From positions 1 through 47,749 of the forward strand of contig JBDREN010000151.1 in NCBI GenBank assembly GCA_043819795.1: 47,749 bases of DNA. Reading direction: 5' to 3'. A program made the translations under genes and the position numbers. This document shows, in pieces, positions 4,869 to 34,461 of the stretch. How positions within the stretch are numbered: the first letter of the stretch is position 1; each line of letters begins with the position of its first letter. The notes under the pieces are model-generated. The model was not told the origin of the DNA and ran no database searches. It saw nothing but the letters and a program-made list of their open reading frames with translations. Origin of the DNA: Elusimicrobiota bacterium (GTDB lineage: Bacteria; Elusimicrobiota; Elusimicrobia; UBA1565).

Positions 4869-4911
4869 AGAAGGTCCGGTGAGGGAGGGATTCGAACCCT
4901 CGAAACGGGGA
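4869..4911 (-). repeat. Duplicate of the tRNA-Ser 3' part (att site)
   Basis: 41/43 identical to 7843-7885; the two differences (4885/7859 and 4901/7875) are a compensatory pair in the T-stem. Confidence 0.9.
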
Positions 4912-5013
4912 GCAGGTAAGGGGAGCCGTCCGTCCGGGCGAAGTACAGGCCCGTCTTGGGATGGGGCTTGAGCCGTTCCAGCAGCCGCGAGAACCGGAAG
5001 CCGAGTATGGCCG

Positions 5014-5107
5014 TCACGTAAAATCACGTGAGATCACGCGAAATCACGTATGGCGTGCAGGCTCCGTCGGAGAAAGTCGGACCCGGCAATCACGCGAAGT
5101 CACGTCA
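5014..5107. repeat. Tandem 10-bp TCACG(T/C)-core repeats (four copies, then two); candidate integrase arm-type sites
   Basis: tcacgtaaaa tcacgtgaga tcacgcgaaa tcacgta (5014-5050) and aatcacgcga agtcacgtca (5088-5107). Confidence 0.6.
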
Positions 5108-5279
5108 GATTCGCGGAGGGGCTAGGCTGGGGCCCACCGGCCCCTCTCGCCCCCAGAAATCGCCGACCCTGAAGAGGTGGAGCAGCCGGAGCGGGCGGGC
5201 ATGCAGGTCCTGGCGCAACGTGGCCTCTCGTAGCCAGTGAGAAGCCGCGAGAGTCTTCTGCGACAAGTTAGGCTGGGAC

Positions 5280-5346
5280 TTGACATAGTGATATTTTGGG
5301 TGCATAATGTGTATTGGGGGAGCACAATATGCGCCCAAAGCATCAT
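5280..5346 (+). promoter_or_regulatory. Sigma70 promoter with overlapping 24-bp inverted-repeat operator for the AbiE operon
   Basis: TTGACA(5280-5285)-17-CATAAT(5303-5308); imperfect IR 5288-5311 / 5323-5346 covers the -10 and the start codon. Confidence 0.8.
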
Positions 5347-6159
5347 TTTAAGACACTCGGACCTCAGGCAGCGCACTTCGTAACGACCCTCCAAGAGCGT
5401 CGCCGCCTAATATTCACGCTGCCGGAGGTCATGGAGATCACGGGCCTGAAGGCCGCCTCTGCCCGCAGCTTTGTCCGCGCTCTTGTCAGCCGAGGGGTGG
5501 CGGCGAGGCTGCGCGCGGGGTTGTTCAACCTGGTTCCTTTCGAGTTGGGTCGGGAAAAGGAGTACCTCGGGAACCCCTACGTGGTGGCCAGGGAGTTGAT
5601 GCGAGGGCGGGATTACTATGTCTCCCATGCTTCCGCCATGGACATCCACCGCATGACGACCCAGCCGCAACTCGTCGTGTATGTCAGTTCGCCGAAGGCC
5701 GTGCGCAAGCGGAGCATCTTCGGCACGGAGTTCCGCTTTGTTCGTTGCCCGCGGGCCCGCTTTTTCGGGTTTTCGGAACAGTGGGCGGACAAACAGGAGA
5801 AGGTCTTGGTGGGCGATCTTGAGCGCACCGTTCTCGACGGCCTCAAGGCCCCTGAGTATTGCGGAGGCGTCACCGAGACGGCCAAGGGCCTCTGGATGCG
5901 GCGAGCCGACATGGATGTCCGGAAGCTGGTGGGGTACGCTCTGCGATTGAACGTCCGCGCCGTCATGGGGCGGCTGGGGCATCTTTTGGAGGTTTTCGGA
6001 ATCGGGACCCCGAACGACGTCGGTCCCTTGAGGGATCGCCTCGGGCGCGCCTATGTTCCGCTTGACCCCACGCTCCCGCCTGAAGGCAGGTTTCTCGCCA
6101 AGTGGCGGCTCCGGCTCAACGTTTCCGCCGAGGAGATCCGCGCCGTCCTGCAGACCTAG
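5329..6159 (+). CDS. abiEi: Type IV TA antitoxin, AbiEi family transcriptional regulator
   Basis: N-terminal wHTH, YYVSHASAMDIH, DLERTVLDGL..PEYCGG, KWRLRLN; directly upstream of AbiEii. Confidence 0.88.
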   Translation: MRPKHHFKTLGPQAAHFVTTLQERRRLIFTLPEVMEITGLKAASARSFVRALVSRGVAARLRAGLFNLVPFELGREKEYLGNPYVVARELMRGRDYYVSHASAMDIHRMTTQPQLVVYVSSPKAVRKRSIFGTEFRFVRCPRARFFGFSEQWADKQEKVLVGDLERTVLDGLKAPEYCGGVTETAKGLWMRRADMDVRKLVGYALRLNVRAVMGRLGHLLEVFGIGTPNDVGPLRDRLGRAYVPLDPTLPPEGRFLAKWRLRLNVSAEEIRAVLQT

Positions 6160-6161
6160 AC

Positions 6162-7001
6162 ATGATCCCGCAGCGCAATCTTTCCCTGCTCTCCAATCGC
6201 CTGGCCAAGTCCGGGGGGCGGCGTATTCCAGAAGCCATCCTCGAACGCGACTATTGCCTGGCGTGGTTCCTGGTCGCGCTCTCGCAGGAAAGCCTGGGCC
6301 GGCGCCTCGCCTTCAAAGGCGGAACGGCGATCAAGCGCTGCTACTTCGGAGACTACCGCTTCTCGGAGGACCTGGACTTCACCCTGACCCGGGAAGCGGA
6401 CTTCGAGACGATCCGGCGGGAGCTCGACCCCGTCTTCGCCCGGGTCCGCGCGGACTCCGGGATCGTTTTCCGCTTCGCCCGCGAGGACCGCCATGGCCAC
6501 TCCAACAGCCATACGTTCTACCTCGGCTATGAGGGGCCCCTGCCCGCGGCCGGCAGGGAGGTCAAGGTCGATATCACGATCAGGGAGAAGCTCGTCTTTC
6601 CCATCGGACATCGTCCGGTCCTCCGAGGATACGGCGAGTATGCCGATCTGCCCGACGGCGCTCGGCTCCGCGCCTATTCCCTGGATGAAATCGCCGTCGA
6701 GAAGGCCGTGGCAGTGACGGATCTGGCCCGAAACGAGCCGCGCGATCTTTACGACGTGTGGTACTTGACCGAGGGAGGTCACGTCGACCTGGCGGCCTTG
6801 AAGGGATCCATCGAAGAGAAGCTGACATTCCGCGGCAAGAAGCTCGACGATGTGCGCGGCGAGCTGCAGGCCAAAGAGCCGCGCTTCAAGAAGCTCTGGG
6901 AAACCCGGCTCTCGGCGCAGATGTCGAGCCTGCCGGAGTTCGCGGAAGTCTATCGGTCCGTGCGGAGAGCCTTTCGTCAGGCTGGACTTTCTCGATGGTG
7001 A
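6162..7001 (+). CDS. abiEii: Type IV TA toxin, AbiEii/AbiGii nucleotidyltransferase
   Basis: LERDY, FKGGTAI, YRFSEDLDF, EK...RDLYD motifs. Confidence 0.93.
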   Translation: MIPQRNLSLLSNRLAKSGGRRIPEAILERDYCLAWFLVALSQESLGRRLAFKGGTAIKRCYFGDYRFSEDLDFTLTREADFETIRRELDPVFARVRADSGIVFRFAREDRHGHSNSHTFYLGYEGPLPAAGREVKVDITIREKLVFPIGHRPVLRGYGEYADLPDGARLRAYSLDEIAVEKAVAVTDLARNEPRDLYDVWYLTEGGHVDLAALKGSIEEKLTFRGKKLDDVRGELQAKEPRFKKLWETRLSAQMSSLPEFAEVYRSVRRAFRQAGLSRW

Positions 7002-7043
7002 AGCGGATTTCTCACGCCTCCTGGACAGCCTAGAATAATCGGA

Positions 7044-7595: not shown

Positions 7596-7791
7596 TCCCT
7601 TCTCCTTCCCGCAGCCGATTCGTTGTCGCAGCGCATTCGTGGCGCCCGAACCGAGGCGCGAAATGGAAAATAATGAGAAAGCGCGAAGCGGGGAAGTCGG
7701 GGCCGGAGGCGAGAATCTCTAGCGCGATTTTCCGATCAGGAGGGAGTGGCCGCTTTTGGACAATATCCGGCAACGAACGGCAACCAACGAC

Positions 7792-7832
7792 AAAACCGGG
7801 CAACCCGGCCGAAGCCGAATTGTCCCGGTTTT
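7792..7832 (-). terminator. Hairpin or terminator downstream of tRNA-Ser
   Basis: Minus strand AAAACCGGG...CGGC-TTCG-GCCG...CCCGGTTTT with a C(UUCG)G tetraloop. Confidence 0.65.
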
Positions 7833-7850: not shown

Positions 7851-7941
7851 CGGTGAGGCAGGGATTCGAACCCTGGAAACGGGGATTAACCCGTTTAACG
7901 GTTTAGCAAACCGCCCCCTTCAGCCTCTCGGGCACCTCACC
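7851..7941 (-). tRNA. tRNA-Ser(GCT), 91 nt, CCA not encoded
   Basis: Acceptor GGTGAGG/CCTCACC plus discriminator G; anticodon arm GCGGT-TTGCTAA-ACCGT; long variable arm AAACGGG/CCCGTTT; T-arm CAGGG-TTCGAAT-CCCTG. Confidence 0.97.
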
Positions 7942-9005: not shown

Positions 9006-9383
9006 TCAGATTATACGTTTTCGCCCCGGCCGCCTCAATGGCCGGCGCTCGAGTTTGTCCATCCACTTGTCGATGGCCGACACCTTGAACCGGATGGTCC
9101 GCCTCCGGCCGTCGCCCAAGGGCACCACGATGTAGGGGATGGCTTCCCGCCGCACCAGCCTCCTGATGCTGGCCGGCGAGATCTTGACGTACTCCGCGAG
9201 CTCGCCCTCGGTCAGATACCCGGACTTGGGCCAATCCCGTTCCGCCCCCGTGCTTGCCTTGGGGGAGGCGCACGGGGGCGGCACAAACCCGGCCTGCCCC
9301 AGGGCCAGGAAATCCACGAGCCGCTCCCCCCTCTGCTCGGGGGTCAAGCCATCCGGACCCGTCAGACCAATGTGCTCGGTCAA
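9006..9383 (-). CDS. Excisionase-like HTH_17 DNA-binding protein
   Basis: YLTEGELAEYVKISPASIRRLV...IP...IRF...IDKWM; TTG start at 9383 behind AAGGAGG, overlapping the upstream stop. Confidence 0.8.
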   Translation of the reverse strand: MTEHIGLTGPDGLTPEQRGERLVDFLALGQAGFVPPPCASPKASTGAERDWPKSGYLTEGELAEYVKISPASIRRLVRREAIPYIVVPLGDGRRRTIRFKVSAIDKWMDKLERRPLRRPGRKRII

Positions 9384-10312
9384 GGCTGCACCTCCTTCCA
9401 CTGGTTTGTCGCTTCGTCGTAGATTCTGTGGACCACGCGGCCGTCATCTCCGACCACAGTATGCACATCCGACCAGTCAAACGGAGGAGGCTCCGGCTTC
9501 CGGGGCTTGGGCAGGGTCTGCTCCAGCATGTCCAGCCGGATTCTGGCTTGCCTGCAGTTCTCGAAGTCATGCATTCCGAGAGACTCTCGGAACCGGCCCA
9601 GATCGCAGGCGTAGATCCAATGCCTTCGCCACTGTTCGGCCAGCCGGAGGATGAAACGCACGCCCCCGGGCCATGCTGTGAGGTAGAGGGCCACTCGGTC
9701 GCGAGGTCGGCTGGCCATCCTGTCCCAGATCAGCTCGTAGCGCCGCTCGGATTTCTGGGAGAGTTCCACCTCCAGCGCCACCAACCGGTCGCCGATCCAG
9801 ACAACCAGGTCCGGACAAACGTACTTGGTCGGGTCGGGAGAGCGGCCCTTCCAGGAGTTGCGGCGGAGCCGCTCGTTCTCGCTCTGGACAGGCAGGCCGA
9901 AGCTCTTCTGCATCATGAGCCCCACCCCGGAGAGCAGGATCTCATGGCGCACCAGCTCCGGGGAAATGCTGCGCCGGAAGCCCGGGAGCCGGGCATGCCC
10001 GGCCTCTTTGAGCCGCTGGTGGCCTCGCTCCGCCAGAGTGAATACCTTGGGGAAGTTCAGGCTGTAGTGAGCCCGCACCAAGCTCGCCCGCTCAAGGTCA
10101 CGCAGCCTCTTGTAGCCCACCTGTCCGTAGAGCCTCCGGTCCGGTTCGTTGAAGAAGAGCCGGGCCTTGCGGGCCTCGTCCACCCATACGGAGAAGCCGA
10201 GCCCGATGATCTGGCCCAGCCCGAGCACGCCCCATTTCTCGAGCCCGGCCAGCACCTGGTAGTCCCGCGGAGCCAGTCTTATGTGTCGCGATCTCAACAA
10301 GGTCACCTCCAA
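9380..10312 (-). CDS. Replication-relaxation (Replic_Relax / MOBC-like) protein
   Basis: RDYQVL, N-terminal wHTH (KRLRDLERASLV..FTLAERG), HEI, and a PD..ExE nuclease motif (PDLVV...ALEVELSQKSERRY); start codon uncertain. Confidence 0.75.
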   Translation of the reverse strand: MEVTLLRSRHIRLAPRDYQVLAGLEKWGVLGLGQIIGLGFSVWVDEARKARLFFNEPDRRLYGQVGYKRLRDLERASLVRAHYSLNFPKVFTLAERGHQRLKEAGHARLPGFRRSISPELVRHEILLSGVGLMMQKSFGLPVQSENERLRRNSWKGRSPDPTKYVCPDLVVWIGDRLVALEVELSQKSERRYELIWDRMASRPRDRVALYLTAWPGGVRFILRLAEQWRRHWIYACDLGRFRESLGMHDFENCRQARIRLDMLEQTLPKPRKPEPPPFDWSDVHTVVGDDGRVVHRIYDEATNQWKEVQP

Positions 10313-11811: not shown

Positions 11812-12198
11812 TCAGGCAGGATGGTGGAGGCCGCTTCTTCCGCTCCTAGGGCGGTTGTAGGTCTCCAGCAGCCGCGGGACGTCGCTTTCATCGACAAAGA
11901 GGACGACCGCGCGCTTTCCCACCGCGCGGGCCAGGCGGTCTATCTTGTCCGCTGTCATGTTCCTCTTCCCGTTCATGACGCGCGAGACTTCCCCCTGCGA
12001 CAGGTCCGCGCGTTTCGCGATCCCCGGCTGCGTGAGGCCCGCCTCCTCGGCCGCCCACCGCAGGCTCAGAGCGACCAGCTTGCGCAACACGGCGACCCGA
12101 TGCCGGGCCAGGAAGCTCTTATCCTTCTTTGCCTCCGCGGCGATGACATCGCCAAGCGTCAGCCTATTTCTTGCGCCTCTTCCTCTCTTCTTCTCCAT
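11812..12198 (-). CDS. XRE-family HTH antitoxin (HigA-like)
   Basis: GLTQPGIAKRADLSQGEVSRVMNG; overlaps the upstream RelE-like gene. Confidence 0.8.
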   Translation of the reverse strand: MEKKRGRGARNRLTLGDVIAAEAKKDKSFLARHRVAVLRKLVALSLRWAAEEAGLTQPGIAKRADLSQGEVSRVMNGKRNMTADKIDRLARAVGKRAVVLFVDESDVPRLLETYNRPRSGRSGLHHPA

Positions 12199-12556
12199 TT
12201 CGTGGTCCCCCGAACCGGCCGATCCAGCTGGCCAGGTTCTTGATCGCTTTAGCGATTTCCTCGTTCGGGACTCGCTGAGTCTTCTTCACGATAATATGCG
12301 ACACGATAATCATCCGGCCTTTCCAGAAGAAATAGAGCGTCCGGTACTGGATCTCATCCTTTGTGCTCCGAAGCTCAAAGATCTTGTCCCGCAGCGGCGC
12401 CGACAGCGGCCGCCGCGCCAGATTCCCGAAAAGCTGAAGGACATTGAGATCCCTGAGAATCTCTTCCCGGTGCGGCTTGGCCAAGGCGTCCAAGGACTCT
12501 TTGGCCGGGAATCTCCCACCCTCTGTCGAAAAGAATTCTACGGTCCAAGACGCCAC
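12164..12556 (-). CDS. Type II toxin, RelE/HigB (Gp49-like) family
   Basis: WTVEFF...PLRDKIFELR...YRTLYFF...IIVSHIIVKKTQRVP.EEI; GTG 12556 follows GGAG (alternative start 12568). Confidence 0.87.
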   Translation of the reverse strand: MASWTVEFFSTEGGRFPAKESLDALAKPHREEILRDLNVLQLFGNLARRPLSAPLRDKIFELRSTKDEIQYRTLYFFWKGRMIIVSHIIVKKTQRVPNEEIAKAIKNLASWIGRFGGPRNGEEERKRRKK

Positions 12557-12573
12557 TTCTTGCTCCACATGGG

Positions 12574-12614
12574 TATGCTATATATAGCATATGCTATATA
12601 TTACATCTTGTCAA
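12574..12614 (-). promoter_or_regulatory. Sigma70 promoter with palindromic operator for the HigBA-like operon
   Basis: TTGACA(12614-12609)-17-TATGCT(12591-12586); overlapping perfect palindromes at 12574-12591 and 12581-12600. Confidence 0.8.
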
Positions 12615-12869
12615 GACCCTGCAACCCCCTTGGCCTCCCGCTCTTTAGCCGGCCACGTCGGACTGCCCCCCTGCCCGCCTTTTTACCTGCAATGCCGGCA
12701 GTGGCCGGTCTCCCCATATTGGGAAATATTCCGCAAAAAGGCGTTGCTGAAATGGGAATTATCCCATAAACTAATACCAGAAGACTTCGTCATTGGCAGA
12801 ATAATAATGCGCCATGGACCTATAGTGAGAGACACCGAGCAGAAATGCAGGACGGTGACAGGGGTGGAT

Positions 12870-13196
12870 ATGGCAAAGAGGCGACCACGGGGAGCGCGTT
12901 TCAAGGACTGGCTCAAGGATGAGATGCGCGATCCCGGGTTCAAGCGCGCTTACGATGCGCTCGGCCCCGAAGTCGAGTTCGCCGTGCAGCTGGCCAAGAC
13001 GAGGGAGAAGATGCGGCTGACCCAGAAACAGCTGGCCAAGAAGGCGCGGGTGGACCAGGGCGACATCTCGAAGATCGAGAACGGAAAGCAGAACATCACC
13101 TTGGGCATGATGGTCAAGCTCGCGAGCGCGGTCAACCGGAAGGTGGAGATCCGGCTTGTCCGGGCCGGGGGCCGCGACGCCGACGCATCGGCCTGA
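12870..13196 (+). CDS. Orphan XRE-family HTH protein (HigA-type antitoxin-like)
   Basis: FKDWLKDEMRDPGFKRAYD...LTQKQLAKKARVDQGDISKIENG; start set at MAKRR. Confidence 0.82.
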   Translation: MAKRRPRGARFKDWLKDEMRDPGFKRAYDALGPEVEFAVQLAKTREKMRLTQKQLAKKARVDQGDISKIENGKQNITLGMMVKLASAVNRKVEIRLVRAGGRDADASA

Positions 13197-13198
13197 GA

Positions 13199-14179
13199 CT
13201 ATCTTTCTTCCCCTGGAGGCCCGGACAGCCTCTTGCCCTTGAACTGCTTCACGTTGAGGGCTTTCCATTGAAGCCCGGGGTGCGCGCGTATGCGCTCGGC
13301 CAGGGCCTTGTCCTTGGTGATGAGCGATGGCTCGATCTCCCCCCGGTCCAGGAGCCTGTCCAGGAACTCCATCTCGCTCTTTGTGAAGGGGAGCACGGCC
13401 TTGAGTCCCTTGCGGCATTCGCGCACCAGAACGTCCGCGGACTTCCACCCCTCCGCGCCCTTGCGTAGCAGGGGGATCAGTTGATTCTTGGCCTCGCGCG
13501 GATCGCAGCTCACGTCCTTGGCCGAGACCTCGCGCCAGTCCTTGCGGTCAATCGCGCCGTAGACCACGAAAGCCAGGCGCAGCTTCGCGCGGTCCAGCTT
13601 CTTCTTCGTCAGGAGCTGATGCGCGTCGAATAGGTCGCGGCTGGCGCCCCGAGCCAGCAAGGCGGCCAGCTTCCCCGCCGCGAGCTCGTGCGGGTCGAGA
13701 AGCGCGGCCTTAGCCTTGTGGCCGCCGATGGATTTGGAGCTTCGGAGGGCGACGGGCCACAACGGGACCCGGAAAAGGTAGTTTACGTCCAGCTCCAGGT
13801 TGCCTCCCCCGCCCATGGCGCTCGGGTAGCGCAGGCTCCACTTCCCCCCCGCGTGCTCTTCGGGCGAGCGCCTGACCGCGAAGCCCTCGCGGGAGCAGAC
13901 CGCCTCGACGGCCCGCTCCACCTTGGGTCGGTCCGCCAGCATGGCTTCCCGCCCGGCGGCCCCTACGTAGTTCAGGTCCGCGTCCACGGAAAGGCGCGGG
14001 ACGTCGAACAAGAAGAGATTGAGCGCCGTCCCTCCCTTGAGCGCCAGTTTGCCCTTGAGGAACGGATGCCTGCCCAGGCCCTCCAACAGCCCAAGAAGCA
14101 GGACGGCCTTCTCCAGGACCTCGGGCCTAAAGCCCGATGACGTGGCCTGAGCCAGCAGCCTTTCCTTGGAGACTTTCAT
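13199..14179 (-). CDS. abiEii: Type IV TA toxin, AbiEii nucleotidyltransferase (second copy)
   Basis: VLEK, LKGGTALNLF, RLSVDADLN, GKLAAL..R..SRDLFD; ATGA overlap with the antitoxin stop. Confidence 0.92.
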   Translation of the reverse strand: MKVSKERLLAQATSSGFRPEVLEKAVLLLGLLEGLGRHPFLKGKLALKGGTALNLFLFDVPRLSVDADLNYVGAAGREAMLADRPKVERAVEAVCSREGFAVRRSPEEHAGGKWSLRYPSAMGGGGNLELDVNYLFRVPLWPVALRSSKSIGGHKAKAALLDPHELAAGKLAALLARGASRDLFDAHQLLTKKKLDRAKLRLAFVVYGAIDRKDWREVSAKDVSCDPREAKNQLIPLLRKGAEGWKSADVLVRECRKGLKAVLPFTKSEMEFLDRLLDRGEIEPSLITKDKALAERIRAHPGLQWKALNVKQFKGKRLSGPPGEER

Positions 14180-14979
14180 CCCTCCGCCTCGCCGGGACGC
14201 TTCAGCAACCGCTCCGGCACGACCAGGTTCCACTTGGACGCGAGCTTTCCGGGTTTCCGGCTGCGGTCCAGGTAATGGGGCACGGCGGGCCGATGCTTGA
14301 GAAGCGGCGCGAGATGCTTGTCCTCCAGCAGCAGAGCCTCGCGTTGCCGATCCAAATAGAATCCGACCCTCGCCGCGGTGGTGGCGTTGTCGAGCAGCAG
14401 GGCGTATCGCACCATCTGCTCCACGTCCAGATATTCGACGGACGCCAGGGAGCGCCAGACCTCCTCCCATCCTCCGCCGAGAGCGGGCCGGTCGAGAAGG
14501 TCGACCACGGTCCGCTCCAGGCCGGTCACCCGCAGATCGAGCCCGGCCCTGTCGGTCTTCTCCACGCCGTAGCCCTCTTGTCGCTTGCGGAGCAGGCTCT
14601 TGGGAAAGCGCACGCCCCGGAAGCGGCTGTCGCGGAAGCTCAGCGGACGCGGGGCTCTGCGGCTCAGGCAGAGGAACTCCTCGCGCACGGACGCGGCCTT
14701 CCCGTGCAGCTCCAGGGCCGTGTGGTATGCCAGCACCGCGTCGTCGGCCAGCTTCGCGGCCAGGAGATACGGATCGACCGGGCAGTCCTCCGGGCTCACG
14801 CCCGGAGGCACCGAGGCAAAAAGGCCCCGGCGCAGGCGCAGGAGGCGCCCGGTGCCGACGTGGTAGCTCAGCAGCGCCGCCCGCGTCCTTGCGTTGGTCC
14901 GGTTCTGCCCGGCGAGGAAGTTCGTGAATTCCTCGTAGGTGAACACCGGGCGCTCCGTGAAGAAGACTTCAAGCTTCAT
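14176..14979 (-). CDS. abiEi: Type IV TA antitoxin, AbiEi family (second copy)
   Basis: RLRRGLF, AYHTALELHG, VTGLERTVVDLLDRP..GGWEE, KWNLVVP. Confidence 0.88.
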   Translation of the reverse strand: MKLEVFFTERPVFTYEEFTNFLAGQNRTNARTRAALLSYHVGTGRLLRLRRGLFASVPPGVSPEDCPVDPYLLAAKLADDAVLAYHTALELHGKAASVREEFLCLSRRAPRPLSFRDSRFRGVRFPKSLLRKRQEGYGVEKTDRAGLDLRVTGLERTVVDLLDRPALGGGWEEVWRSLASVEYLDVEQMVRYALLLDNATTAARVGFYLDRQREALLLEDKHLAPLLKHRPAVPHYLDRSRKPGKLASKWNLVVPERLLKRPGEAEG

Positions 14980-25704: not shown

Positions 25705-25722
25705 GAAAGCCGCCTCTCACGC

Positions 25723-28134
25723 CTATTTCACGCCGATCTTCACGATCTCCCTCTTGCCGCCGGCATCCACCACGCAGATGTAGCCTCCCATCTCCACATG
25801 CCGCCCGTCGCCCGACCTACCGTCCCAAAACACCTCATTGGGACCGATTCGCCCCCCGTTCGATCCCGCGCTGTAGCGGGTGTCCCGAGCAAGCCGGCCG
25901 AACGGATCGTAGATGCGGATCCTTACGTCCCGGTTCTGGTCCAGGGAGTAGCGGATTCGGGTCTGTTGCCCCCGCAGCGGCGAAAACGGGTTGGGGTAGT
26001 TCGTAAGACTCTCGAGAGCGCTCGCGGCCGGGGAAAAAGCCATTATCCCGAAGAGCGTGAAATGGTCTACACGGCCCGTGACCTTCCTGGTCACCGTATT
26101 CACACTGGAGTTCGGTATCAGCACCCAATAGCCCCGCGACTCGTCGTAGTAGAACAGCCGCAGGCTCGCTTCATCCATCCCCGCCACGTCGACGGCCGTG
26201 TAGGTGAGGGTGATCGTGATGTCCTTCTGGAATCGCGTGGTGCCGTTCACCATCTGGATATCCTTGATGACAGAGGTGGCCGTTACCCCGGATCCCTTTG
26301 AAGAAGGCGGTGATCCGACGGGTGGTTGGATGTTGATCAAGGTCGCGGCGGACAGCGCGCCTGCCGGTATCTCCACCTTCACGCCGTCGGCTGTCTCGAG
26401 AACGGAGTCGCCTGCGGGGTCCACCGTGGCATCGACAATGAACTTGTAGTGGATCGCCTGCGTGCCGACGTTGCCTGCGCCGTCTTTGGCGACGGCGTGG
26501 AAGTACCAGGTGCCGTTCGTTAGGAGCGATCTCGCCTGGATCGGATTCGGGCTGAAGTCGTCCGAGGCTGCCGGCACGCCTCCCGGGTTCCTGTCGATCA
26601 TCCAGTGATACCCTGCTATGCCGGACGGATCATTCGGCCCTGAGAGGTTGAATGCCGGGTTTATTGCAGGGTAGGCGACGTTCTGATTCGGATGGGACGG
26701 CGAGGTCGCGGCCGTCGGAATGTCGGGAGCGGTCCGGTCGACCAAGGTCCCGGCGCTCCAGCCGGAGTATCCGGTATAATCCCCATCCAGATTCCTCGCT
26801 CGGACCCGCGCGTAGTATATCTTGTCCCCCTGAGCGCCCGATATCGTTTGGCTGAGCACATCTCCAACATCCCCGTCGAAAATGCTGGCGTCATTGGAAT
26901 CCGAGTCGGTCCCTATCTGAATATAGTAGCCGGAGATCCCGCTCTCGGGGTCCGAGGCGCTCCCCTGCCCCCAAGCAAAAGTCATCGTCCCGGAAATTGA
27001 GAAGGCATCGCCAACAGGAACGGAGGGGATCCCAAGAGGTCCGGTCGTGTCGGGAACCCACATGCCGAACCGGAGACCCGCGTCAGTCGTCCCGTAGATG
27101 ATCAGCGTATTCCCGGTTGGATCGAACCCTAGGGCGGGAATGTACCAAAGCGATGTCCGCAAATCCTCGACGCTAGACGAGATCCAACTCCGACCGTTCC
27201 ACTTCGCGTACATTGGGCTGGCATGGGGATGAGCTTCCGCAATGAAGCTGATCTCCGGATTATCGGCGGAGTCGAGCACGATAGACGGCTGATGAGGCTG
27301 GCCCAGCGAGACCGTCTGCGTGGACCACGCGACTCCCGTCCAGCGAGCGTACTTCACGGATCGGGGATCATCCCAACCATAGGCGATATGCGGGATCCCC
27401 GCGGAATCGACCGCGATAGAGACTTCTCTAGTGAGTGTCGCTTCTACGGTTTGGGTCGACCAAGAGACCCCGTTCCATTCGCCATAACCCAAAGAAGCGC
27501 CATAATGATCGTTGTACGCGATGTGAGGCTTTCCGGCCGGGTCAAGAGCCAAAGAGCTATAGAGCCCGAACCCCCATACCTCGGCGATCGTCATTGTCGA
27601 CCAGGAGACACCCGTCCATACTGCGTATTTAAGATCGCGGCAGTCGTTACCGCAGTAGCTGATATGCGGATTCCCAGAATCATCGACGGCGATCGAGGCC
27701 ATCGCGTCCGGAAAAGTCGTGATGGCCCCAGCCGGGTCGACAAGCTGAATGTCCCAAAGGAGTCCTTGAAATCTCGCGTACATCAGTCCCTGATCTTGGT
27801 GATAAGCTATATGCACGCCACCAAAGTCGTCCACGTCGATAGACGGCTTCCACCGGTTCCCCGTCGAGCTGGCGGCCGAATCAACGAACTGGGATGTCCA
27901 GCCCGAGCCGGTTCTCTTGATGTGTCGCAGCGTATCGGGGTCCCAGTCGAGACAGGCGAGGTGGACATCGCCCGCGGAATCCACGACCATGTTCGAGCAA
28001 GTCATCCCCCCCGTGGGGAACGATTCAAAAGACCATAAAGCTTCCGCCCGATGGACGAAAAGCGTCCCCGCGCCCAGGAGGGCCAATGCCAGACCCCCAA
28101 CGAAACATCTCATCGGTCTCTCGGCTCCTTTCAT
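25723..28134 (-). CDS. Secreted protein with propeller-like repeats, FN3 domains, a ZU5-like region and a T9SS/FlgD-Ig-type C-terminal domain
   Basis: Repeated SIAVD..G.PHIAY...LKYA.W.G..W; C-terminus NYPNPF...IRIYD..G.L...WDGR...GGY...KIGVK. Confidence 0.82.
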   Translation of the reverse strand: MKGAERPMRCFVGGLALALLGAGTLFVHRAEALWSFESFPTGGMTCSNMVVDSAGDVHLACLDWDPDTLRHIKRTGSGWTSQFVDSAASSTGNRWKPSIDVDDFGGVHIAYHQDQGLMYARFQGLLWDIQLVDPAGAITTFPDAMASIAVDDSGNPHISYCGNDCRDLKYAVWTGVSWSTMTIAEVWGFGLYSSLALDPAGKPHIAYNDHYGASLGYGEWNGVSWSTQTVEATLTREVSIAVDSAGIPHIAYGWDDPRSVKYARWTGVAWSTQTVSLGQPHQPSIVLDSADNPEISFIAEAHPHASPMYAKWNGRSWISSSVEDLRTSLWYIPALGFDPTGNTLIIYGTTDAGLRFGMWVPDTTGPLGIPSVPVGDAFSISGTMTFAWGQGSASDPESGISGYYIQIGTDSDSNDASIFDGDVGDVLSQTISGAQGDKIYYARVRARNLDGDYTGYSGWSAGTLVDRTAPDIPTAATSPSHPNQNVAYPAINPAFNLSGPNDPSGIAGYHWMIDRNPGGVPAASDDFSPNPIQARSLLTNGTWYFHAVAKDGAGNVGTQAIHYKFIVDATVDPAGDSVLETADGVKVEIPAGALSAATLINIQPPVGSPPSSKGSGVTATSVIKDIQMVNGTTRFQKDITITLTYTAVDVAGMDEASLRLFYYDESRGYWVLIPNSSVNTVTRKVTGRVDHFTLFGIMAFSPAASALESLTNYPNPFSPLRGQQTRIRYSLDQNRDVRIRIYDPFGRLARDTRYSAGSNGGRIGPNEVFWDGRSGDGRHVEMGGYICVVDAGGKREIVKIGVK

Positions 28135-28168
28135 ACGACGCGGACGCGGTCAGCGGCTCCGAAGCGTC

Positions 28169-28675
28169 CTACGGCTTCTTGCCCGCGGCCTGCTCGATCT
28201 CCTCCTTGCGGAGCTCGTCGAAGAGCTCCTCGGAGCGCTTATTGAGGAACTTCTTCGTCCTCTCGGTGAGCTGCGGCGCGTTCTGCATCACCCTCCTGAA
28301 CTCGTCGAGATCCAGCTTGGCCAAAGAATGGATCGTTTCGCCCTTCTCGTATCTGTCCACGATGCGGACGCCCGAGATGTGTCCTGCGCTGAAGGTCTTG
28401 ATCACGCGGTCCACCATCTCGCCTTCCGTGCCGTCGTACTCCTTCATTAGGTAGCCGGTGTAGGTGTCGAAATACCTCTGAAGGTCGGCGCGGGCCCGGT
28501 TGTCGGCGGCCTCCATGCGCAGGTTCCTGCTGCGTATGCCCTCATCCGCTTGCCCGACGCCGTAGAACACCTTGTCGCTCGGCTTGAACGCGGCCGAGCC
28601 CTTCTTCGCCCACTTGGGGGTGCCGGCGCACCCCGAAATCGCGGCTATGATAGCCAAAATGGCGATTCGTTTCAT
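28169..28675 (-). CDS. LPP20-like lipoprotein
   Basis: MKRIAILAIIAAISG-C lipobox, P.W, FYGVG, AADNRARADL; SD GGGAGG. Confidence 0.75.
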   Translation of the reverse strand: MKRIAILAIIAAISGCAGTPKWAKKGSAAFKPSDKVFYGVGQADEGIRSRNLRMEAADNRARADLQRYFDTYTGYLMKEYDGTEGEMVDRVIKTFSAGHISGVRIVDRYEKGETIHSLAKLDLDEFRRVMQNAPQLTERTKKFLNKRSEELFDELRKEEIEQAAGKKP

Positions 28676-28751
28676 GTCGCGCCTCCCGGCCGATGGCTCA
28701 TCAGTCCTAATAGTACTAGCGGTAATTGAGCGCGGACCGAACATCCATTCC

Positions 28752-29765
28752 TCATTTGCGGGCTTTCCTGGATCTGATCTCATAGGACGCGACCTGCATC
28801 GTCCATTCGTAGCGCTCCAGCTTGGCGAGCCTACGCATGACCTCCGCCATCTTCCCCATGCTCACGGCGGCGTACGGATCTTGCCGCCTCAGCGGGACCG
28901 CAGCCTCCGGGGGCATGAGTTCCTTCTTGGCCGCCACAACCAAGAGCCTTTCGGTGACTACGGACTCTCCGCGGGGCAGCATCGCCCTGTAGGCTATGCC
29001 GCTGCCTTCGCCCGGGATATCGACCAGCTCGCCGGCCTTCACGCGGTTGTCCGTCTGTAGACGGTTGGGAAAGACCATGAAGATGTTGTCCCGGCTGTCC
29101 CAGCTGAAGACGTATAAGCGGGCGTCCCTCGATACCGACAACGCGATCCGCACCGGCTCGCCTTCGTAGTATTGGCTTCGGTCGATCCCAAGGGGCGTCC
29201 CCGAACGGCGGTCCAATATCTGGAACGCGGGGTCGACAGCCCCCTTGAATACGATCGTCCCGCGGACGCGGACCCGGCAGGTCGTGACGCCGTCCCCGAC
29301 ATCGCACTCCGGCTCCCCGGCCTTCTCGTTCATGAGCAGCCCGCGGTTGGAGGAGAAAAGAAACCTCGCCACGGCTTCGTAGCGGTCCTTCCCCATCTGG
29401 GAGGAGTAGTCGCTGAAGCCGTAGAAGATGTCCGTGCCCTTGCGCATCGCCTTGGCACGGGCGTCCTCCTTCGCCCGCCTCACGGCCGTTTCTTGGGTTT
29501 CGTGACTGAGGGCCTTCCCGACGCCGGTCTCATCGAACCGGACAGTCTCGTCTTCGGTCCGCGTCCACGATTCCGCCGGACTCGGGACGGACCCTCTCCT
29601 GAGCCTATCCGACTCCGGCCCCGCATATTCTCGCTGGGCCGTCCCCTTCTCAAGCGTCCGCATCTCGCGCAGCCCCTCGTCCAGGCGCGGCTTCATACTC
29701 GCGGGCGCGGGGGGGCCGGCGCAGGAGGCCGAGAGCACCAGCGCCGAAATGAGCATCCACCTCAT
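28752..29765 (-). CDS. Lipoprotein with a C-terminal DUF4384-like domain
   Basis: Lipobox SAS-C; Y..GEPVRI......DARLYVF.......MVFPN......VKAG...IP pattern. Confidence 0.75.
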   Translation of the reverse strand: MRWMLISALVLSASCAGPPAPASMKPRLDEGLREMRTLEKGTAQREYAGPESDRLRRGSVPSPAESWTRTEDETVRFDETGVGKALSHETQETAVRRAKEDARAKAMRKGTDIFYGFSDYSSQMGKDRYEAVARFLFSSNRGLLMNEKAGEPECDVGDGVTTCRVRVRGTIVFKGAVDPAFQILDRRSGTPLGIDRSQYYEGEPVRIALSVSRDARLYVFSWDSRDNIFMVFPNRLQTDNRVKAGELVDIPGEGSGIAYRAMLPRGESVVTERLLVVAAKKELMPPEAAVPLRRQDPYAAVSMGKMAEVMRRLAKLERYEWTMQVASYEIRSRKARK

Positions 29766-29935
29766 GGTTTTTGCGTTCCGAGCTCTTTTTCGAACTCCGC
29801 CTCTCCCTGGGCGGGCGGCAGCTCCTTGAACAGGGATTCAGCCCTCATGCGGACATCGTTCTTGGGCGGCGAAGCGCAGCCCAGAGGCATTATCCCTAAT
29901 GCGAGCGCCAGCAACGCCGCCGTCAGCCGAGACAT
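29762..29935 (-). CDS. Small 57-aa lipoprotein
   Basis: MSRLTAALLALALGIMPLG-C lipobox; SD GGGAG; ATGA coupling to the next gene. Confidence 0.7.
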   Translation of the reverse strand: MSRLTAALLALALGIMPLGCASPPKNDVRMRAESLFKELPPAQGEAEFEKELGTQKP

Positions 29936-30089
29936 GGTCTCCCGCTTCTTCGATAGAATGGGAAACCCGCACGCGCCGGCATGCCGGTGGAGAGCTATGA
30001 TCCAGTCCAAGGGGGACCTCCTGAAAAAATTCACCCCTTGAGAAGGGAGAGGCCGGGATAGGACGGCCTCGAGACCCTCCTCACATCTT

Positions 30090-30238
30090 AGTATACCCCG
30101 CATATCCGGCCTCCGCAATGCAAAAATCCAGCCGAATCCGGCGGTTCCGCTTGAGGTTCCTCTCGACGGAGGCTGGCGTCCGGACGGGACGTTTCGGTTT
30201 GATGTCGCATTGCATCTCCCCAGCGAGCGGGCTATACT
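30090..30238. promoter_or_regulatory. Back-to-back sigma70-like promoters
   Basis: Minus: TTGCGG(30118-30113)-17-TATACT(30095-30090). Plus: TTGCAT(30210-30215)-17-TATACT(30233-30238). Confidence 0.6.
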
Positions 30239-30366
30239 TACTTTTGTCAAGTAGAGGGCCCTGGGAGGCCCAGTCCTATCCACCGGAACCTCCCAGGACC
30301 GAAATCCTCGTTATCCCTATTAGCGGAGAACCGGACGAAACCGAACACCCGCGGACCCGCCGCAAA

Positions 30367-30984
30367 ATGCCGGAAAACCAAATCGAGCCTCTAGCGAGCT
30401 CCCTGACGCTGGTCAGGCAGGCCAAAGAAGGCGACACCGAGGCGCTCGACGCGCTCTTCAGGCGCTACGCCTCCCGCGTGCTCCATATCGCCCGCGTCCG
30501 GCTCGGGCCGGGCTTGCGGACGAGACTGGACTCCCAGGACATCGTCCAGGAGGCCTTCATCCGCGCGGTCAAAGGGTTCGGGAAGTTCGAGGTCCGGCAT
30601 GAGGGGGCGTTCCTGCACTGGATGAGCGAGCTGGTCAGGAACGCCATCCGCGACCAATACGACTATTTCCACGCGAAGAAGCGCGCGATGTCCAGGGACG
30701 TGGCCCTCATCCGGCCCACCGATTTGACGGACCACGGGGCTGCGACCGTCCCTGGGTTCGACCCTACGCCCAGCCGGGTGTTCGCGGCGAGGGAGGACAT
30801 CCAGAAGCTGGTCGATGCCATGGACCGGCTCCCCGAGGAAGCCCGGGAGGCTGTGGTGCAAAGGGATATGGAAGGCCTGCCCTTCGCCGAGATCGGGAAG
30901 ATGATGGGCCGCTCGGAGGACGCGGCGCGCATGCTCTACGCCCGCGCCAAGGCCAAGCTGGCAGCCTTGATGCAGGCCTCATAG
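30367..30984 (+). CDS. ECF sigma factor of the kinase-associated (planctomycete-like) type
   Basis: AKEGDTEALDALFRRY, LRTRLDSQDIVQEAF, HAKKR, TPSR, region 4 HTH; followed by a Ser/Thr kinase. Confidence 0.88.
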   Translation: MPENQIEPLASSLTLVRQAKEGDTEALDALFRRYASRVLHIARVRLGPGLRTRLDSQDIVQEAFIRAVKGFGKFEVRHEGAFLHWMSELVRNAIRDQYDYFHAKKRAMSRDVALIRPTDLTDHGAATVPGFDPTPSRVFAAREDIQKLVDAMDRLPEEAREAVVQRDMEGLPFAEIGKMMGRSEDAARMLYARAKAKLAALMQAS

Positions 30985-30986
30985 CG

Positions 30987-33368
30987 ATGGGCGATTCCGA
31001 GAAGCCGACCAGCGTTGACGCCATCATGGAGGCCTTCCTCGAGGCGCAGGCCAGAGGCGAGGCTCCCGACCAGGAAGCCCTCTTGAAGGAGCATCCCGAG
31101 CACAGAGAACAGTTTCAAGCCCGTCTCGCTGCCTTGGGCCGGGTCGACGACTGCTTTCGCATGATCCGCGAAAGCTCCTCGCAGGGAGACGGGCCTAGGG
31201 TCGAGATTCCTAAGAACCTGCGGATCACCGGGTACCGAATACTGGACAAGATCGGCGAGGGGGGCATGAGCGCGGTCTTCCTGGCGGAGCAGACCGCTCT
31301 CAAGAGGCTGGTGGCCCTCAAGGTCATGTCCCCGGCGTGGTCCAGCGACGCGCGCTCCATCGCCCGCTTCAAGCGCGAGGCGGAGACCATCGCCCGGCTC
31401 GCGCATCCGGGAATCGTGCCCATCCATCACTTCGGGGGTGAGGATGGGACCCACTTCCTGGTCCTCGATCTCGTCTCCGGCATCGACTTGGGGAGCCTGA
31501 TCCAAGGACTCAAGGGATCCGGCGTCCCGGAGAACGGACTCCCGGTCCTGGAGATCATGCGAGGGCGTATGGACCGGATCGGCGCGGTCGCCGCCGAGCA
31601 TGGGAAGCGGCCGGACGATCCGGGAGCCGACAAGGAGTTCTGGTCACGGCCCTATCCCGAGATTTGCGCAACGATTCTCCGTGACGTGGCGGCCGCCCTG
31701 GAATGCGCCCACGAGAAAGGCGTGATACACCGCGACATCAAGCCGTCCAACATCATCGTCTCACCGGACGGCAAGCCTCGGATCATAGACTTCGGGCTGA
31801 CGCTTCCCGAATCGGCGGACGCCCTGACGCGGTCGACGGACTTCCTCGGCACCGTCCTGTACGCTTCGCCCGAGCAGGTATCGGGAAGCGCGCACGACGT
31901 GGGGCCTCAGAGCGATCTGTTCTCTTTAGGCGCGGTCATGTACGAGCTGTTGACCCTGCGGCGGCCCTTCGAGGGAGGATCCCTCTCTGAGGTCTTCGAG
32001 AAGCTGACCCGGCAAGACCCCCCCTCCATGCGGAGACAGACGTCTCAGGTCCCCCCTGATTTGGAAACCATCTGCTTCGTGGCCCTCGAGAAGGAAGGCA
32101 AGCATCGCTACGCCTCGGCCAAGGAGCTCAAGGACGACCTCCAACGGTTCTTGGACCACCGCACGATAAGAGCGCGGCCCACTCCGCTCATGCGGAGACT
32201 GGGCAAGCTGATCCGCAGAAATCCCGTTCCCATCGCCGCGGCGGCCCTCCTGCTCGCGGCAGGCGGGGGTTTCTGGTGGAAGCTCGCCCATACGCGGTCC
32301 ACGGCATCGCAGGCGAGCCATGAGCTGGCCGAGGCGCGGTCCAGGCTTGAGCAGGCCCGCGAGGCCTCTGAACAAGATGTGCGGCAGGAACGATACCTCC
32401 GCATCGTCTCTGAAGGAAAGGCATTGCTGAAAGAAGGCCATTCGGAAAGGGCGCAGAAGTTGTTCTCCGATGCGATAGAGCTGGCGCCGGAGAGGCCGGA
32501 AGCATACCTCACCCGCGCCGAAGCCTCCTTTCTATCAGAATCGGGTCTGTCGCATGCCCTGGCCGACATCCGGAAGGCGGAAGCCCTACAAACGCCCGGC
32601 CGGGATGCCCTGACCTTGAAGGCGGCCGTCCTCCACCGTCTAGGAAGGAACGAAGAGAGCATCCAGACGGAAAGGGAGATCCTGAGGCGTTTCCCGAACG
32701 ACCGCGAGGCCTCGATCAGGCTGTCCTACAGGCTGATGGAATCCAAGGAGTACCCCGAAGCCGCTAGCCTTCTTGAGGAGCGCATCAAGAGCAACCCCGA
32801 CGACCCCGAGCTTCTAACGGCCGCGGCCTGGGCCGACCTGGGGCTCGAGAGGGTCGAAACAGCGTTGGCGCGCGCCGGAAAGGCCGCACGGATCGCTCCG
32901 AGCAATGCGTCGGTGCATATGGCGCTGGGGCACGCGTTGATGCGGTCGAAGCGCTATGCGGAGGCCGCCGGCGCCTTTTCACTATTGCTCAAGGTGGAGC
33001 CCGCCAACGTCAAAGCGAGGCTCCTGTGCGCCGAGGCCCTGACTCTGGCGGGCGAGCTGGAGGCGGGAGAAAGACAGTTCCTCGCGTCCCTGGACCAGGG
33101 CGCGGCCGATGCGCGGGCGCTTCAGGGACTGGCTGGGAATCTGGTCCGGCAGGGCAGGGTGGAGGAAGCGGTCGGGCTATACAAGCGGAGCTTGGCGGCG
33201 GGCGAAGGGAACGCGAGCACGCTCATCATGATCGCGGAGTTGCTCGAAATCGTCGGCCGCCCCGATGAAGCCGTCGATTTTTATGAAAGAGCCGGCAAGC
33301 TCGCCACCTCCGACAGCGACCGGCAGCACGTCAAAGAGAAGCTCGACAAGCTATTGAACAAGCCGTAG
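30987..33368 (+). CDS. Hanks-type Ser/Thr protein kinase with a TM segment and C-terminal TPR array
   Basis: IGEGGMSAV, VALK, HRDIKPSN, DFGL, GTVLYASPEQ, SDLFSLG; TM IAAAALLLAAGGGFWW; multiple TPRs. Confidence 0.95.
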   Translation: MGDSEKPTSVDAIMEAFLEAQARGEAPDQEALLKEHPEHREQFQARLAALGRVDDCFRMIRESSSQGDGPRVEIPKNLRITGYRILDKIGEGGMSAVFLAEQTALKRLVALKVMSPAWSSDARSIARFKREAETIARLAHPGIVPIHHFGGEDGTHFLVLDLVSGIDLGSLIQGLKGSGVPENGLPVLEIMRGRMDRIGAVAAEHGKRPDDPGADKEFWSRPYPEICATILRDVAAALECAHEKGVIHRDIKPSNIIVSPDGKPRIIDFGLTLPESADALTRSTDFLGTVLYASPEQVSGSAHDVGPQSDLFSLGAVMYELLTLRRPFEGGSLSEVFEKLTRQDPPSMRRQTSQVPPDLETICFVALEKEGKHRYASAKELKDDLQRFLDHRTIRARPTPLMRRLGKLIRRNPVPIAAAALLLAAGGGFWWKLAHTRSTASQASHELAEARSRLEQAREASEQDVRQERYLRIVSEGKALLKEGHSERAQKLFSDAIELAPERPEAYLTRAEASFLSESGLSHALADIRKAEALQTPGRDALTLKAAVLHRLGRNEESIQTEREILRRFPNDREASIRLSYRLMESKEYPEAASLLEERIKSNPDDPELLTAAAWADLGLERVETALARAGKAARIAPSNASVHMALGHALMRSKRYAEAAGAFSLLLKVEPANVKARLLCAEALTLAGELEAGERQFLASLDQGAADARALQGLAGNLVRQGRVEEAVGLYKRSLAAGEGNASTLIMIAELLEIVGRPDEAVDFYERAGKLATSDSDRQHVKEKLDKLLNKP

Positions 33369-33521
33369 CTCATCGCCTCTCCGTCGGAGAACGGTCTGCG
33401 GCACTTACAACACTTTTTACAACACTTTGGCGTCAAAACGGGATACGAAGCGAGCGCTGCTGATCTTAACTGTCGTCGGAGAAACGTCTTTAGGCGGGGT
33501 CTTAGGCGGGGCCCAGGCAGA

Positions 33522-33568
33522 TTAGCAAACCGCCCCCTTCAGCCTCTCGGGCACCTCACCTTTCGACG
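33522..33568 (-). repeat. Duplicate of the tRNA-Ser 5' half plus 8 bp (junction att between the large and mini elements)
   Basis: 47/47 identical to 7903-7949; stops at the anticodon loop. Confidence 0.95.
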
Positions 33569-33858
33569 TCCATCCAAGCATTTCCGACGGATTAGAGCAA
33601 GACGGAGAACGGTCCGCGGCACTTACAACACTATTTACAGTGCTTTGGCTTTCGCTGATATTTATCGAAGAGGATTTGGATGCTATTGGCGTCGCGCACA
33701 ATCTTCCCGGGGCGAGTCGCGGGGCTGGGATCCACCGAGGCATGCCGAAGCCCGAGAGTTCCTCCGGCCGGACCAAGCCGCGGCTGTTCGTCTAATAACG
33801 GAAGCGGCGGTGTCCGCGCCGCCGATCCAAAAGTATCGAAAGGTTCAGCCAGACGACC

Positions 33859-33939
33859 TTATATGCCGGGCACAAACGGAATGCACCCACCTATAAACGC
33901 GCATACGGCGCCGATAAGCAGTAGCGCAAATATTCTCAT
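33859..33939 (-). CDS. Candidate leaderless 26-aa hydrophobic peptide (MRIFALLLIGAVCAFIGGCIPFVPGI), or the 5' stub of a broken lipoprotein gene
   Basis: ATG lies 6 nt downstream of TTGACA(33973-33968)-16-TATACT(33951-33946). Confidence 0.4.
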   Translation of the reverse strand: MRIFALLLIGAVCAFIGGCIPFVPGI

Positions 33940-34372
33940 GCGCAAAGTATAGCCGATACGCTTGATTTGTCAAGAGAATCGGTTTGCCTCGATCCTGAGT
34001 CCGGCCCCCGGTCCCAACGCGCCGGCGTTGATATTAAGGGTCTGTCCGAATAATCCTGCCGGGCGCGCGATTTCCGCTGATGGCCTGCGACTGCGGATGC
34101 AAGCTTCTGCAGAAAGGACCGCTCCTACTGCGCCGATACGGGCGTGATGTGCGTCTTGAACTCCCGGGAGCTGGCGTTGGTCCACACACCGCCATCGGTC
34201 ACCTGCGACCCGGAGACTTTCGCAGAGTACTCGCCGGATAAACGGTCCGCGGCACTTACAACATTTATTACATCACTTTGGCGCTCAAAAGGGATGCGAA
34301 GCGAGCGCTGCTGATCGGAGCTGTCGTCGGCGAGAGGTCGTCCGGCGGGGTATCCGGCGGGGCCGAGCGAGA

Positions 34373-34411
34373 TAGCAAACCGCCCCCTTCAGCCGCTCGG
34401 GCACCTCACCT
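34373..34411 (-). repeat. Displaced, probably original chromosomal tRNA-Ser 5' half
   Basis: One D-loop mismatch against the intact gene; different upstream flank. Confidence 0.9.
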
Positions 34412-34433
34412 AAAGCCAAATGGCTCTGAGGGG

Positions 34434-34461
34434 ATAATATCTTTTCCCGGTCGCGATACAA
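34434..34461 (-). promoter_or_regulatory. Probable native tRNA-Ser promoter
   Basis: TTGTAT(34461-34456)-16-TATTAT(34439-34434), 23 nt upstream of the displaced 5' half. Confidence 0.6.

Follow-up and report, generated by a model that had tools for sequence, protein, structure and literature searches.

The window analysed here, the whole 47,749-nt contig C151 of an Elusimicrobiota genome (G000), carries one tRNA-Ser(GCT) gene with displaced pieces of further copies on both sides. On balance we think it probable, if not strongly so, that this working gene has been replaced throughout by the action of two integrase families, both apparently recombining at the anticodon loop: its front half would have come from family-1 elements and its back half and terminator from a family-2 element that probably carried a whole tRNA. 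About 0-7 nt of the gene would then be original. The initial annotation of this DNA had put that figure at about 17-25 nt; the lower value reflects that family 2 breaks the gene at the anticodon loop and that the edge of the downstream fragment looks like a deletion join.

Displaced pieces of a single-copy tRNA gene

ARAGORN and Rfam recognize one tRNA-Ser(GCT) gene in the window (Table 1), and it is the only one among the 40 tRNAs called in G000 (4.99 Mb in 241 contigs, 90% complete), a set that is incomplete in having no call for tRNA-Phe or tRNA-Ile. AGY codons, which no other serine tRNA can read under standard decoding rules, make up by a rough count about 30% of the serine codons in the long frames of this genome.

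Two displaced 5′ halves lie upstream of the gene, fragment B at a spacing of 25,619 bp and fragment A at 26,469 bp, and a piece of its 3′ part, fragment F, lies 2,974 bp downstream. Fragment B is identical to the working gene over 39 nt (47 nt with shared upstream sequence; BLAST E-value 1e-17 genome-wide), and fragment A differs from it over 38 nt by a single change, GAGCGG for GAGAGG in the D-loop; in both, identity ends at the anticodon loop. Fragment F carries two changes, at nt 67 and nt 83, which together form one T-stem pair. Its homology extends to position 4819, for 94 nt in total at 85% identity, and the terminators behind the two copies both fold (-31.9 and -28.1 kcal/mol). Coordinates, spacings and the variants of the outer copies had all been given exactly in the initial annotation. 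A separate tRNA-Ser gene, named there as a possible source of fragment F, is ruled out: the three other Ser genes of G000 match over only 27-45 nt and have neither the CCTCACC acceptor of F nor its variable-arm strand.

Relatives in the examined loci provide 24 distinct Ser(GCT) sequences for comparison. Of these, 23 have GAGCGG in the D-loop and one has GAGTGG; at the T-stem pair, 23 have G-C and one has A-T. Fragments A and F show the common states. Fragment B and the working gene have GAGAGG and the T-stem pair of the working gene is C-G, states found in 0 of the 24. By this comparison the outer fragments would hold the ancestral states and the working gene the derived ones. Both derived states are viable together, since L039, a metagenome gene that looks unrelated to judge from its neighbours, combines them. 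The 59 columns behind fragment F contain 12 differences with both hairpins intact; because F itself differs by one compensatory pair, the pattern favours two copies that diverged while functional over the decay of a dead copy.

Fragment A is the outermost piece, since no arm repeat pair of the kind described below occurs within 200 nt upstream of it and it is preceded by a promoter-like site, TTGTAT-16-TATTAT at 34461-34434, resembling the sequence upstream of the Ser(GCT) gene in two relatives (G008 and G022). This promoter had already been noticed in the initial annotation; the promoter scanner made no call there. The base missing from the loop of fragment A would probably block excision.

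In relatives of the same family, the tRNA-Ser(GCT) gene usually follows a Zn-finger gene (G006, G008, G012) and precedes an ArfB-like gene (G003, G006, G012 and others). The sulfatase-like and DUF2079 genes that had been expected to flank a single gene in relatives are not beside the tRNA in 11 relative loci, and no genome of the same genus was found. Because the Zn-finger and ArfB-like genes of G000 lie on other contigs with no adjoining tRNA, the locus has moved, and 'original' can refer only to the outermost surviving copy.

Family-1 elements at the 5′ end

The family-1 integrase, whose 347-aa frame is whole, ends 18 nt ahead of the tRNA. It scores above the PF00589 cut-off and far below those of the XerC, XerD and integron models. 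Pairs of the arm repeat TGTTGTAA start at 8010, 33430, 33648 and 34281, four sites that contain six of the 18 copies of TGTTGTAA in G000. Since arm pairs stand at all four ends and identity with the tRNA stops at the anticodon loop, the stretch 7942-33521 reads as a 5′-restoring island and 33561-34372 as a remnant of the same family without its integrase; the right arm of the remnant is 82% like that of the island. The integrase island, the arms and the 5′ fragments thus bear out the earlier proposal that the 5′ half came from a mobile element. Like the 5′-fragment islands of Islander, the 25.6-kb element has a same-strand 5′ fragment upstream of an intact tDNA, its own non-Xer tyrosine integrase and a length (25,619 bp) between 2 and 200 kb. 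The remnant has family-1 arms only, lacks an integrase and is shorter than 2 kb. The composition of the inserts, the cargo of the 25.6-kb island included, is not clearly foreign. Of the traits of an integrative mobilizable element, the 25.6-kb element has a putative relaxase, recognized through Atlas alone.

Related arrangements occur in other genomes. In G003, which belongs to another genus, a 70% identical integrase with the same arms precedes tRNA-Ser(GCT), and a 5′ fragment lies 8.6 kb upstream. All five further genomes chosen for an integrase before tRNA-Ser(GCT) contain 5′ fragments, three of them on the same contig and two of those in tandem. Because the displaced 5′ fragments of G232, G238 and G014 differ from the working front halves, swaps of front-half alleles are routine.

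A near-TATAAT box stands just before the tRNA in 18 of 25 loci with 5′ geometry, and not in G000 or G003, both of which have a -10 box before the integrase. The present front half (C) has no -10 box of its own, and no terminator was called in G000 between the family-1 integrase and the tRNA. The gene is therefore likely to be transcribed by read-through from the promoter of the integrase (9038-9010), and the tRNA would then be cut out of that transcript. The promoter in the 850-bp remnant, aimed at fragment B, is as expected if the remnant once had to drive the tRNA gene.

Family-2 remains behind the gene

The 35-codon integrase scrap fused to fragment F belongs to a second integrase family: of 101 genomes of the order, G000 included, 28 have matches to it, with a best E-value of 4e-8 outside G000; the proteins matched carry PF00589 in all three cases scanned. 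In 28 of 29 family-2 loci (29 of the 32 non-own matches were examined), 75-115 residues follow the corresponding piece before the integrase C-terminus, and the edge of fragment F at nt 57 therefore looks like a deletion join in mid-gene. Four of the 29 integrases stand before a whole tRNA-Ser(GCT) and two before a Ser(GCT) 5′ fragment; all six, that of L178 among them, are aimed into the 5′ end on the same strand; many loci have no tRNA nearby.

A second trace of this family lies behind the terminator of the working gene. The 42-nt arms of the family-2 elements in G232 and G267 both find their best ungapped match in G000 (5 Mb, two strands) at 7786-7745, with 31 of 42 positions for G232 (runner-up 27) and 28 of 42 for G267 (no other at 27). 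Outside G000, a 19-nt pattern of this arm has eight matches in the other 100 genomes, six of them 132-137 nt behind a Ser(GCT) 5′ fragment. In G253 the arm word is found again, between the tRNA and a family-2 integrase. Among 44 exact matches across GTDB and IMG/VR, five accompany a Ser(GCT) 5′ fragment, all in Elusimicrobiota and overlapping the set of 101 genomes. A whole gene with its terminator precedes the arm in G000 alone, where the distance from the loop is 145 nt. Viral scans gave no family-1 arm and two matches to the family-2 pattern, neither with a tRNA fragment.

The 3-kb block between the gene and fragment F thus has the same-strand downstream 3′ fragment of a conventional 3′-restoring island, with a 35-codon scrap in place of an intact integrase and an arm that follows 5′ fragments in six of the eight matches in the other genomes. 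Of the earlier proposal of a chimera from different elements, the tie of the 3′ half and terminator to a different element family stands; the idea of the block as an ordinary 3′-restoring island with a crossover in the variable arm is not supported. As a DNA query, 4912-5300 gave three weak matches, and its CGTGAT repeats were not seen as such in the 29 family-2 loci.

A relative with two complete genes

Two complete tRNA-Ser(GCT) genes around an insert are absent from G000 today, where the second copy is truncated, and are present in G006, a member of the same family. There, the INTERMEDIATE exists: two identical genes lie 2,668 bp apart (L213:10613-13372, G006:C83). The first gene is accompanied by the host promoter and some 58 nt of the gene that comes next in the host. 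The second is preceded by a left arm and promoter 77-80% like those of two family-2 loci (L183 and L186). Between them is one 755-aa gene that looks like a hybrid sensor kinase, and the cassette has no integrase. G006 is the state that our model needs before the deletion, and it cannot tell import from copying in place. Elsewhere, L215 (G061:C1) looks like a segmental duplication: its two tRNA-Ser(CGA) genes, 5.6 kb apart, are identical, and so are their long flanks.

A proposed history and its alternatives

The events may have run as follows. A family-2 element, normally 5′-restoring, would have excised imprecisely in a related host, exchanging about 100 nt of its own arm spacer for the back half and terminator of the tRNA gene there and so giving an attP with a whole tRNA. 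Insertion in the G000 lineage would have left two full genes, the upstream one joining the resident front half to the imported back half, and the downstream one, behind the integrase and arm, joining the front half of the element to the resident back half. A later single deletion that took the C-terminus of the integrase together with the arm and nt 1-56 of the spare gene downstream would account for the observed join of the scrap to fragment F. Two family-1 insertions at the loop, as the layout shows, displaced A and B and likely supplied front half C; their order relative to the family-2 insertion cannot be fixed.

Several observations weigh against this history. No excised circle, empty site or attP with a whole tRNA and both arms was found in pattern scans, metagenome contigs or viral scans; the 17 genomes of the family that were compared include none of the same genus. 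The 38-nt front-half pattern matched 0 GTDB records and nine metagenome stretches, apparently of another lineage, and metagenome contigs from three runs of one study gave short near-identical pieces that bridged no join. (A candidate joint of 4906 to 7857 with a 20-nt side in these contigs was rejected as the tRNA of another organism.) Some members of family 2 sit at tRNA-Glu or tRNA-Tyr in 3′-type geometry, and the scrap is too short to be placed within the family. The 19-nt arm pattern was composed with the G000 locus already in view and matches nine of 101 genomes, against seven for a reversed control; a plain local alignment of the arm region scores 36 against a shuffle maximum of 38, and only the first of the two arm repeats is kept. 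Fragment F is only modestly less diverged than its flank (binomial 0.017, Fisher 0.07), nt 40-56 lack a resident counterpart for comparison, and the duplicate in G006 is 100% identical over 149 bp with no evident right arm. A weak TTGTAA-18-TGAAAT at 7990-7961 may serve as a local promoter.

The identity of the two G006 genes, which takes in sequence of the host's next gene, would fit another origin, in which the back half is a host duplicate. Here a normal 5′-restoring family-2 element would have inserted, and its attL would have been completed to a full gene from the resident gene downstream, through template switching or long target duplication; the two copies would have drifted under selection until the recent deletion of the downstream one. 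Long target duplications are described (PMC2853133). Such copying in place, however, needs 12 of 59 terminator positions and a T-stem pair to change while the 3-kb relic keeps its open frames, and does not require the nearly kept distance from loop to arm (145 against 132-137 nt); we consider it unlikely. Another reading is an ordinary 3′-restoring island, here with a crossover in the variable arm or at the junction of T-arm and acceptor that would leave 17-45 nt of the middle original. The same-strand 3′ fragment downstream is the correct Islander layout, T and J sites account for 1,836 of 3,919 islands (PMC4383910), and G239 has a 21-nt J-type duplicate 165 nt behind tRNA-Ser(GCT). It is nevertheless improbable: the scrap and the arm behind the terminator come from a loop-crossing, 5′-pointing family, fragment F abuts mid-integrase sequence, and a junction crossover needs a separate derived state in the host and in the 5′ donor. 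A crossover in the T-loop was ruled out, as both parents would need a mismatched stem.

Loop-crossing 3′-restoring elements do occur in G000, where 3′ fragments begin at nt 28-30 of Tyr, Ala and Glu tRNAs, and a separate element of this kind could have landed in the displaced 5′ fragment of a family-2 element and revived it before being lost by a deletion ending at the family-2 arm. This asks for one extra element and one extra deletion, of which we found no trace, leaves the kept spacing unexplained, and seems to us just as improbable as the ordinary island. An assembly or binning artefact has to be considered for a metagenome-assembled contig in a genome of 241 pieces, given that no independent contig bridged the joins. 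The repeats are, however, 38-94 nt long and not identical, and the same layouts recur in G003, G022, G232, G238, G239 and G006, which makes an artefact very improbable.

Replacement of the gene from both sides by families 1 and 2 could be part of a wider process, which we put forward tentatively, as possible rather than probable. In it, 5′-restoring elements, mainstream in this order, would capture the back halves of host tRNAs through imprecise excision, pass through a whole-tRNA attP, and so replace, re-promote and even relocate essential tRNA genes of single copy from one species to another. The present locus and that of G006 would then be snapshots of an integrase family flipping between 5′- and 3′-restoring polarity, with a tRNA gene that has no original base and depends on an integrase promoter. 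If the history proposed above is right, 'stable' tRNA target genes are swapped piecewise between related hosts, an essential tRNA would have been placed under an integrase promoter, and an intermediate for the switch of att polarity would be at hand. The locus also warns against taking a downstream 3′ fragment as proof of a 3′-restoring island.

5′-restoring geometry in the order

With the family-1 integrase as query, the 101 genomes yielded 79 matches, of which 73 were examined (the six weakest omitted); with four other G000 integrases these make 77 loci. A same-strand tRNA starts within 600 nt after the integrase in 36 loci, another 15 are of 3′-type geometry, and at the remaining 26 no tRNA lies within such a distance; the query biases this set, which is not comparable with the Islander figure of 159 in 3,919. 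By these counts the 5′-restoring mode is common in this Elusimicrobiota order. In a quick tree of 82 rows (one short row dropped, geometry labels at 1,400 nt), 40 rows of 5′ type and 19 of 3′ type need two changes against 16 in shuffles, with an unsupported root and kin that are not independent. At thresholds of at least 30 nt and 88%, tRNA fragments in G000 comprise ten 5′ fragments, five 3′ fragments and seven others. A PF00589 search was discarded for counting integrases, its matches being mostly of Xer size.

Further loci also came to light. In one integrase clade (L104, L105, L115, L122, L124 and L130) the reading frame runs 60-100 nt into the tRNA gene that it precedes, and the Thr(TGT) integrase of G000 terminates inside the anticodon loop. 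Elsewhere in G000, tRNA-Thr(CGT), Thr(TGT), Ser(CGA), Leu(TAA), Lys and Met (contigs C12, C133, C123, C14, C53 and C17) are accompanied by integrases on their upstream side, by arm pairs or by 5′ fragments. Five tRNA-Gly copies that are nearly complete and begin at nt 10-14 (C182, C52, C5 and C164) point to a crossover near the D-arm or to decayed whole-gene duplicates, and two tRNA-Phe-like 5′ fragments surround a family-2 integrase at G000:C90:1215-8617, the intact tRNA-Phe being uncalled in the assembly. In nine metagenome contigs of an apparently unrelated lineage (L032-L040), triple GGGACAAT repeats and a promoter are followed by this same tRNA front half; eight of the nine are not complete genes, one ending with its contig, and they represent a further 5′-restoring family.

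Two other tRNA genes may be double-sided. In G239 (L167:2394-2414), the 21-nt 3′ duplicate mentioned above lies behind the same tRNA-Ser(GCT) that has a 5′ element, a small second case. The intact tRNA-Tyr gene of G000 (C86:10322-10405, L170) is spanned completely by the reading frame of an integrase upstream of it. At 42629-42685(+) the window contains a 3′ piece of tRNA-Tyr (nt 28-84) whose anticodon is changed to GTG, followed by about 85 nt of sequence that is also shared.

Relation to known systems

Each ingredient of this locus is known: 5′-restoring islands, tandem arrays and whole-tRNA att sites. Zhao and Williams in 2002 reportedly dealt, to judge from the title, with 'reversed target gene orientation'. 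Islands with a 5′ tDNA fragment number 159 of 3,919 in Islander (PMC4383910), and 5′-restoring islands have been catalogued (PMC4383910, PMC8371274, PMC6563490). Those of Islander share with ours a tyrosine integrase, an anticodon-centred crossover, a displaced 5′ half upstream and tandem arrays; what differs here is that the mode is frequent across an order, that at least two integrase families act at one tRNA and that the back half is also replaced. The pTN3-like integrases of Thermococcales likewise use the 5′ half as attB; restoration separates the tRNA from its own promoter, and according to the review it is read from that of the integrase (PMC8371274, PMC5495485). In pTN3 and SSV-type elements, however, attP lies inside the integrase gene and splits it, whereas the integrase here is whole and has lambda-like arm repeats and an excisionase. 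Elements with att sites covering an entire tRNA gene, and insertions with a long target duplication (PMC2853133), resemble the insert between two whole copies seen in G006 and proposed for G000; here, by contrast, the form is apparently derived from a 5′-restoring family, one copy has been deleted and the two copies are different alleles. With conventional 3′-restoring islands (Williams 2002, as cited in PMC8371274 and PMC6563490), the locus shares an intact gene, an insert and a 3′ fragment with terminator, but its arm and scrap come from a 5′-pointing family and its fragment edge looks like a deletion join.

Searches of the open-access literature brought up no report of a single-copy tRNA with replacements from both sides (the Islander and TIGER tables may list double-sided targets), of a displaced 5′ fragment (attL) turned back into a working gene, of such elements in Elusimicrobiota, or of an order in which 5′ polarity is common.

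Features of the window

Table 1. Features of the tRNA-Ser(GCT) locus, by position in the window
Feature	Position	Strand	Remarks
Terminator behind fragment F	4819..4858	-	80% like that of the working gene; flush with DUF2079 promoter (4810-4782)
Fragment F, tRNA nt 57-91	4877..4911	-	Ancestral T-stem GAGGG/CCCTC
Family-2 tyrosine integrase scrap	4913..5017	-	35 codons of catalytic half, fused to fragment F
CGTGAT repeats	5013..5106	-	10-bp period, unique in G000, role unexplained
Probable AbiEi partner	5314-6159	+	In 3-kb block; suggested by position
AbiEii	6102-7001	+	In 3-kb block
ECF sigma	7044-7595	-	In 3-kb block
Right (attL-type) arm of family-2 Ser(GCT) element	7745..7786	-	145 nt after anticodon loop
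Intrinsic terminator of working gene	7792..7832	-	
Working tRNA-Ser(GCT)	7851..7941	-	nt 1-32 likely family-1 element; nt 33-39 (loop) unassignable; nt 40-91 likely family-2 element
Family-1 tyrosine integrase, 347 aa	7959..9002	-	Points into tRNA 5′ end; PF00589, E-value 7e-35
Left arm pair of 25.6-kb island	8010-7985	-	Overlaps last integrase codons
Excisionase-like HTH_17 open reading frame	9006..9401	-	3′ end contains integrase promoter
Integrase promoter TTGAGG-17-TATAAT	9038-9010	-	Within 3′ end of HTH_17 frame
Replication-relaxation-like protein, probable relaxase	9380..10312	-	Atlas features 0.96; structure TM 0.70 to PF13814 clusters; no Pfam or NCBIfam match
Addiction/defence modules: Gp49(RelE-like)-HTH pair, HTH, AbiEi-AbiEii	11812..14979	.	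Pfam
Island cargo (18 kb): PorV-like, 2461-aa FG-GAP/fn3 protein, caspase-domain protein, lipoprotein, DUF4384, ECF sigma, Ser/Thr kinase-TPR	15211..33368	.	Pfam
Far-end arm repeat pair of 25.6-kb island	33405..33430	-	TGTTGTAA, period 12
Fragment B, displaced 5′ half, nt 1-39	33522..33560	-	Identical to working gene
Integrase-less 850-bp family-1 remnant	33561..34372	-	Arms 34281-34256 and 33648-33623
26-codon open reading frame in remnant	33939-33859	-	
Promoter TTGACA-16-TATACT in remnant	33973-33946	-	11/12; aimed at fragment B
Gene relic in remnant	34211-34131	-	
Fragment A, displaced 5′ half, nt 1-38	34373..34410	-	Ancestral D-loop GAGCGG; loop heptamer short by one base
Promoter-like site TTGTAT-16-TATTAT	34434..34461	-	Before fragment A; likely pre-insertion tRNA promoter

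Two further observations concern the interior of the 25.6-kb island. Upstream of the relaxase-like gene, at 10840-11330(-), short repeated blocks and a broken HTH-like frame are probably the remains of a decayed replication or primase gene. The 2461-aa FG-GAP/fn3 protein (16134-23519(-)) has three repeated modules and adjoins the PorV-like gene.

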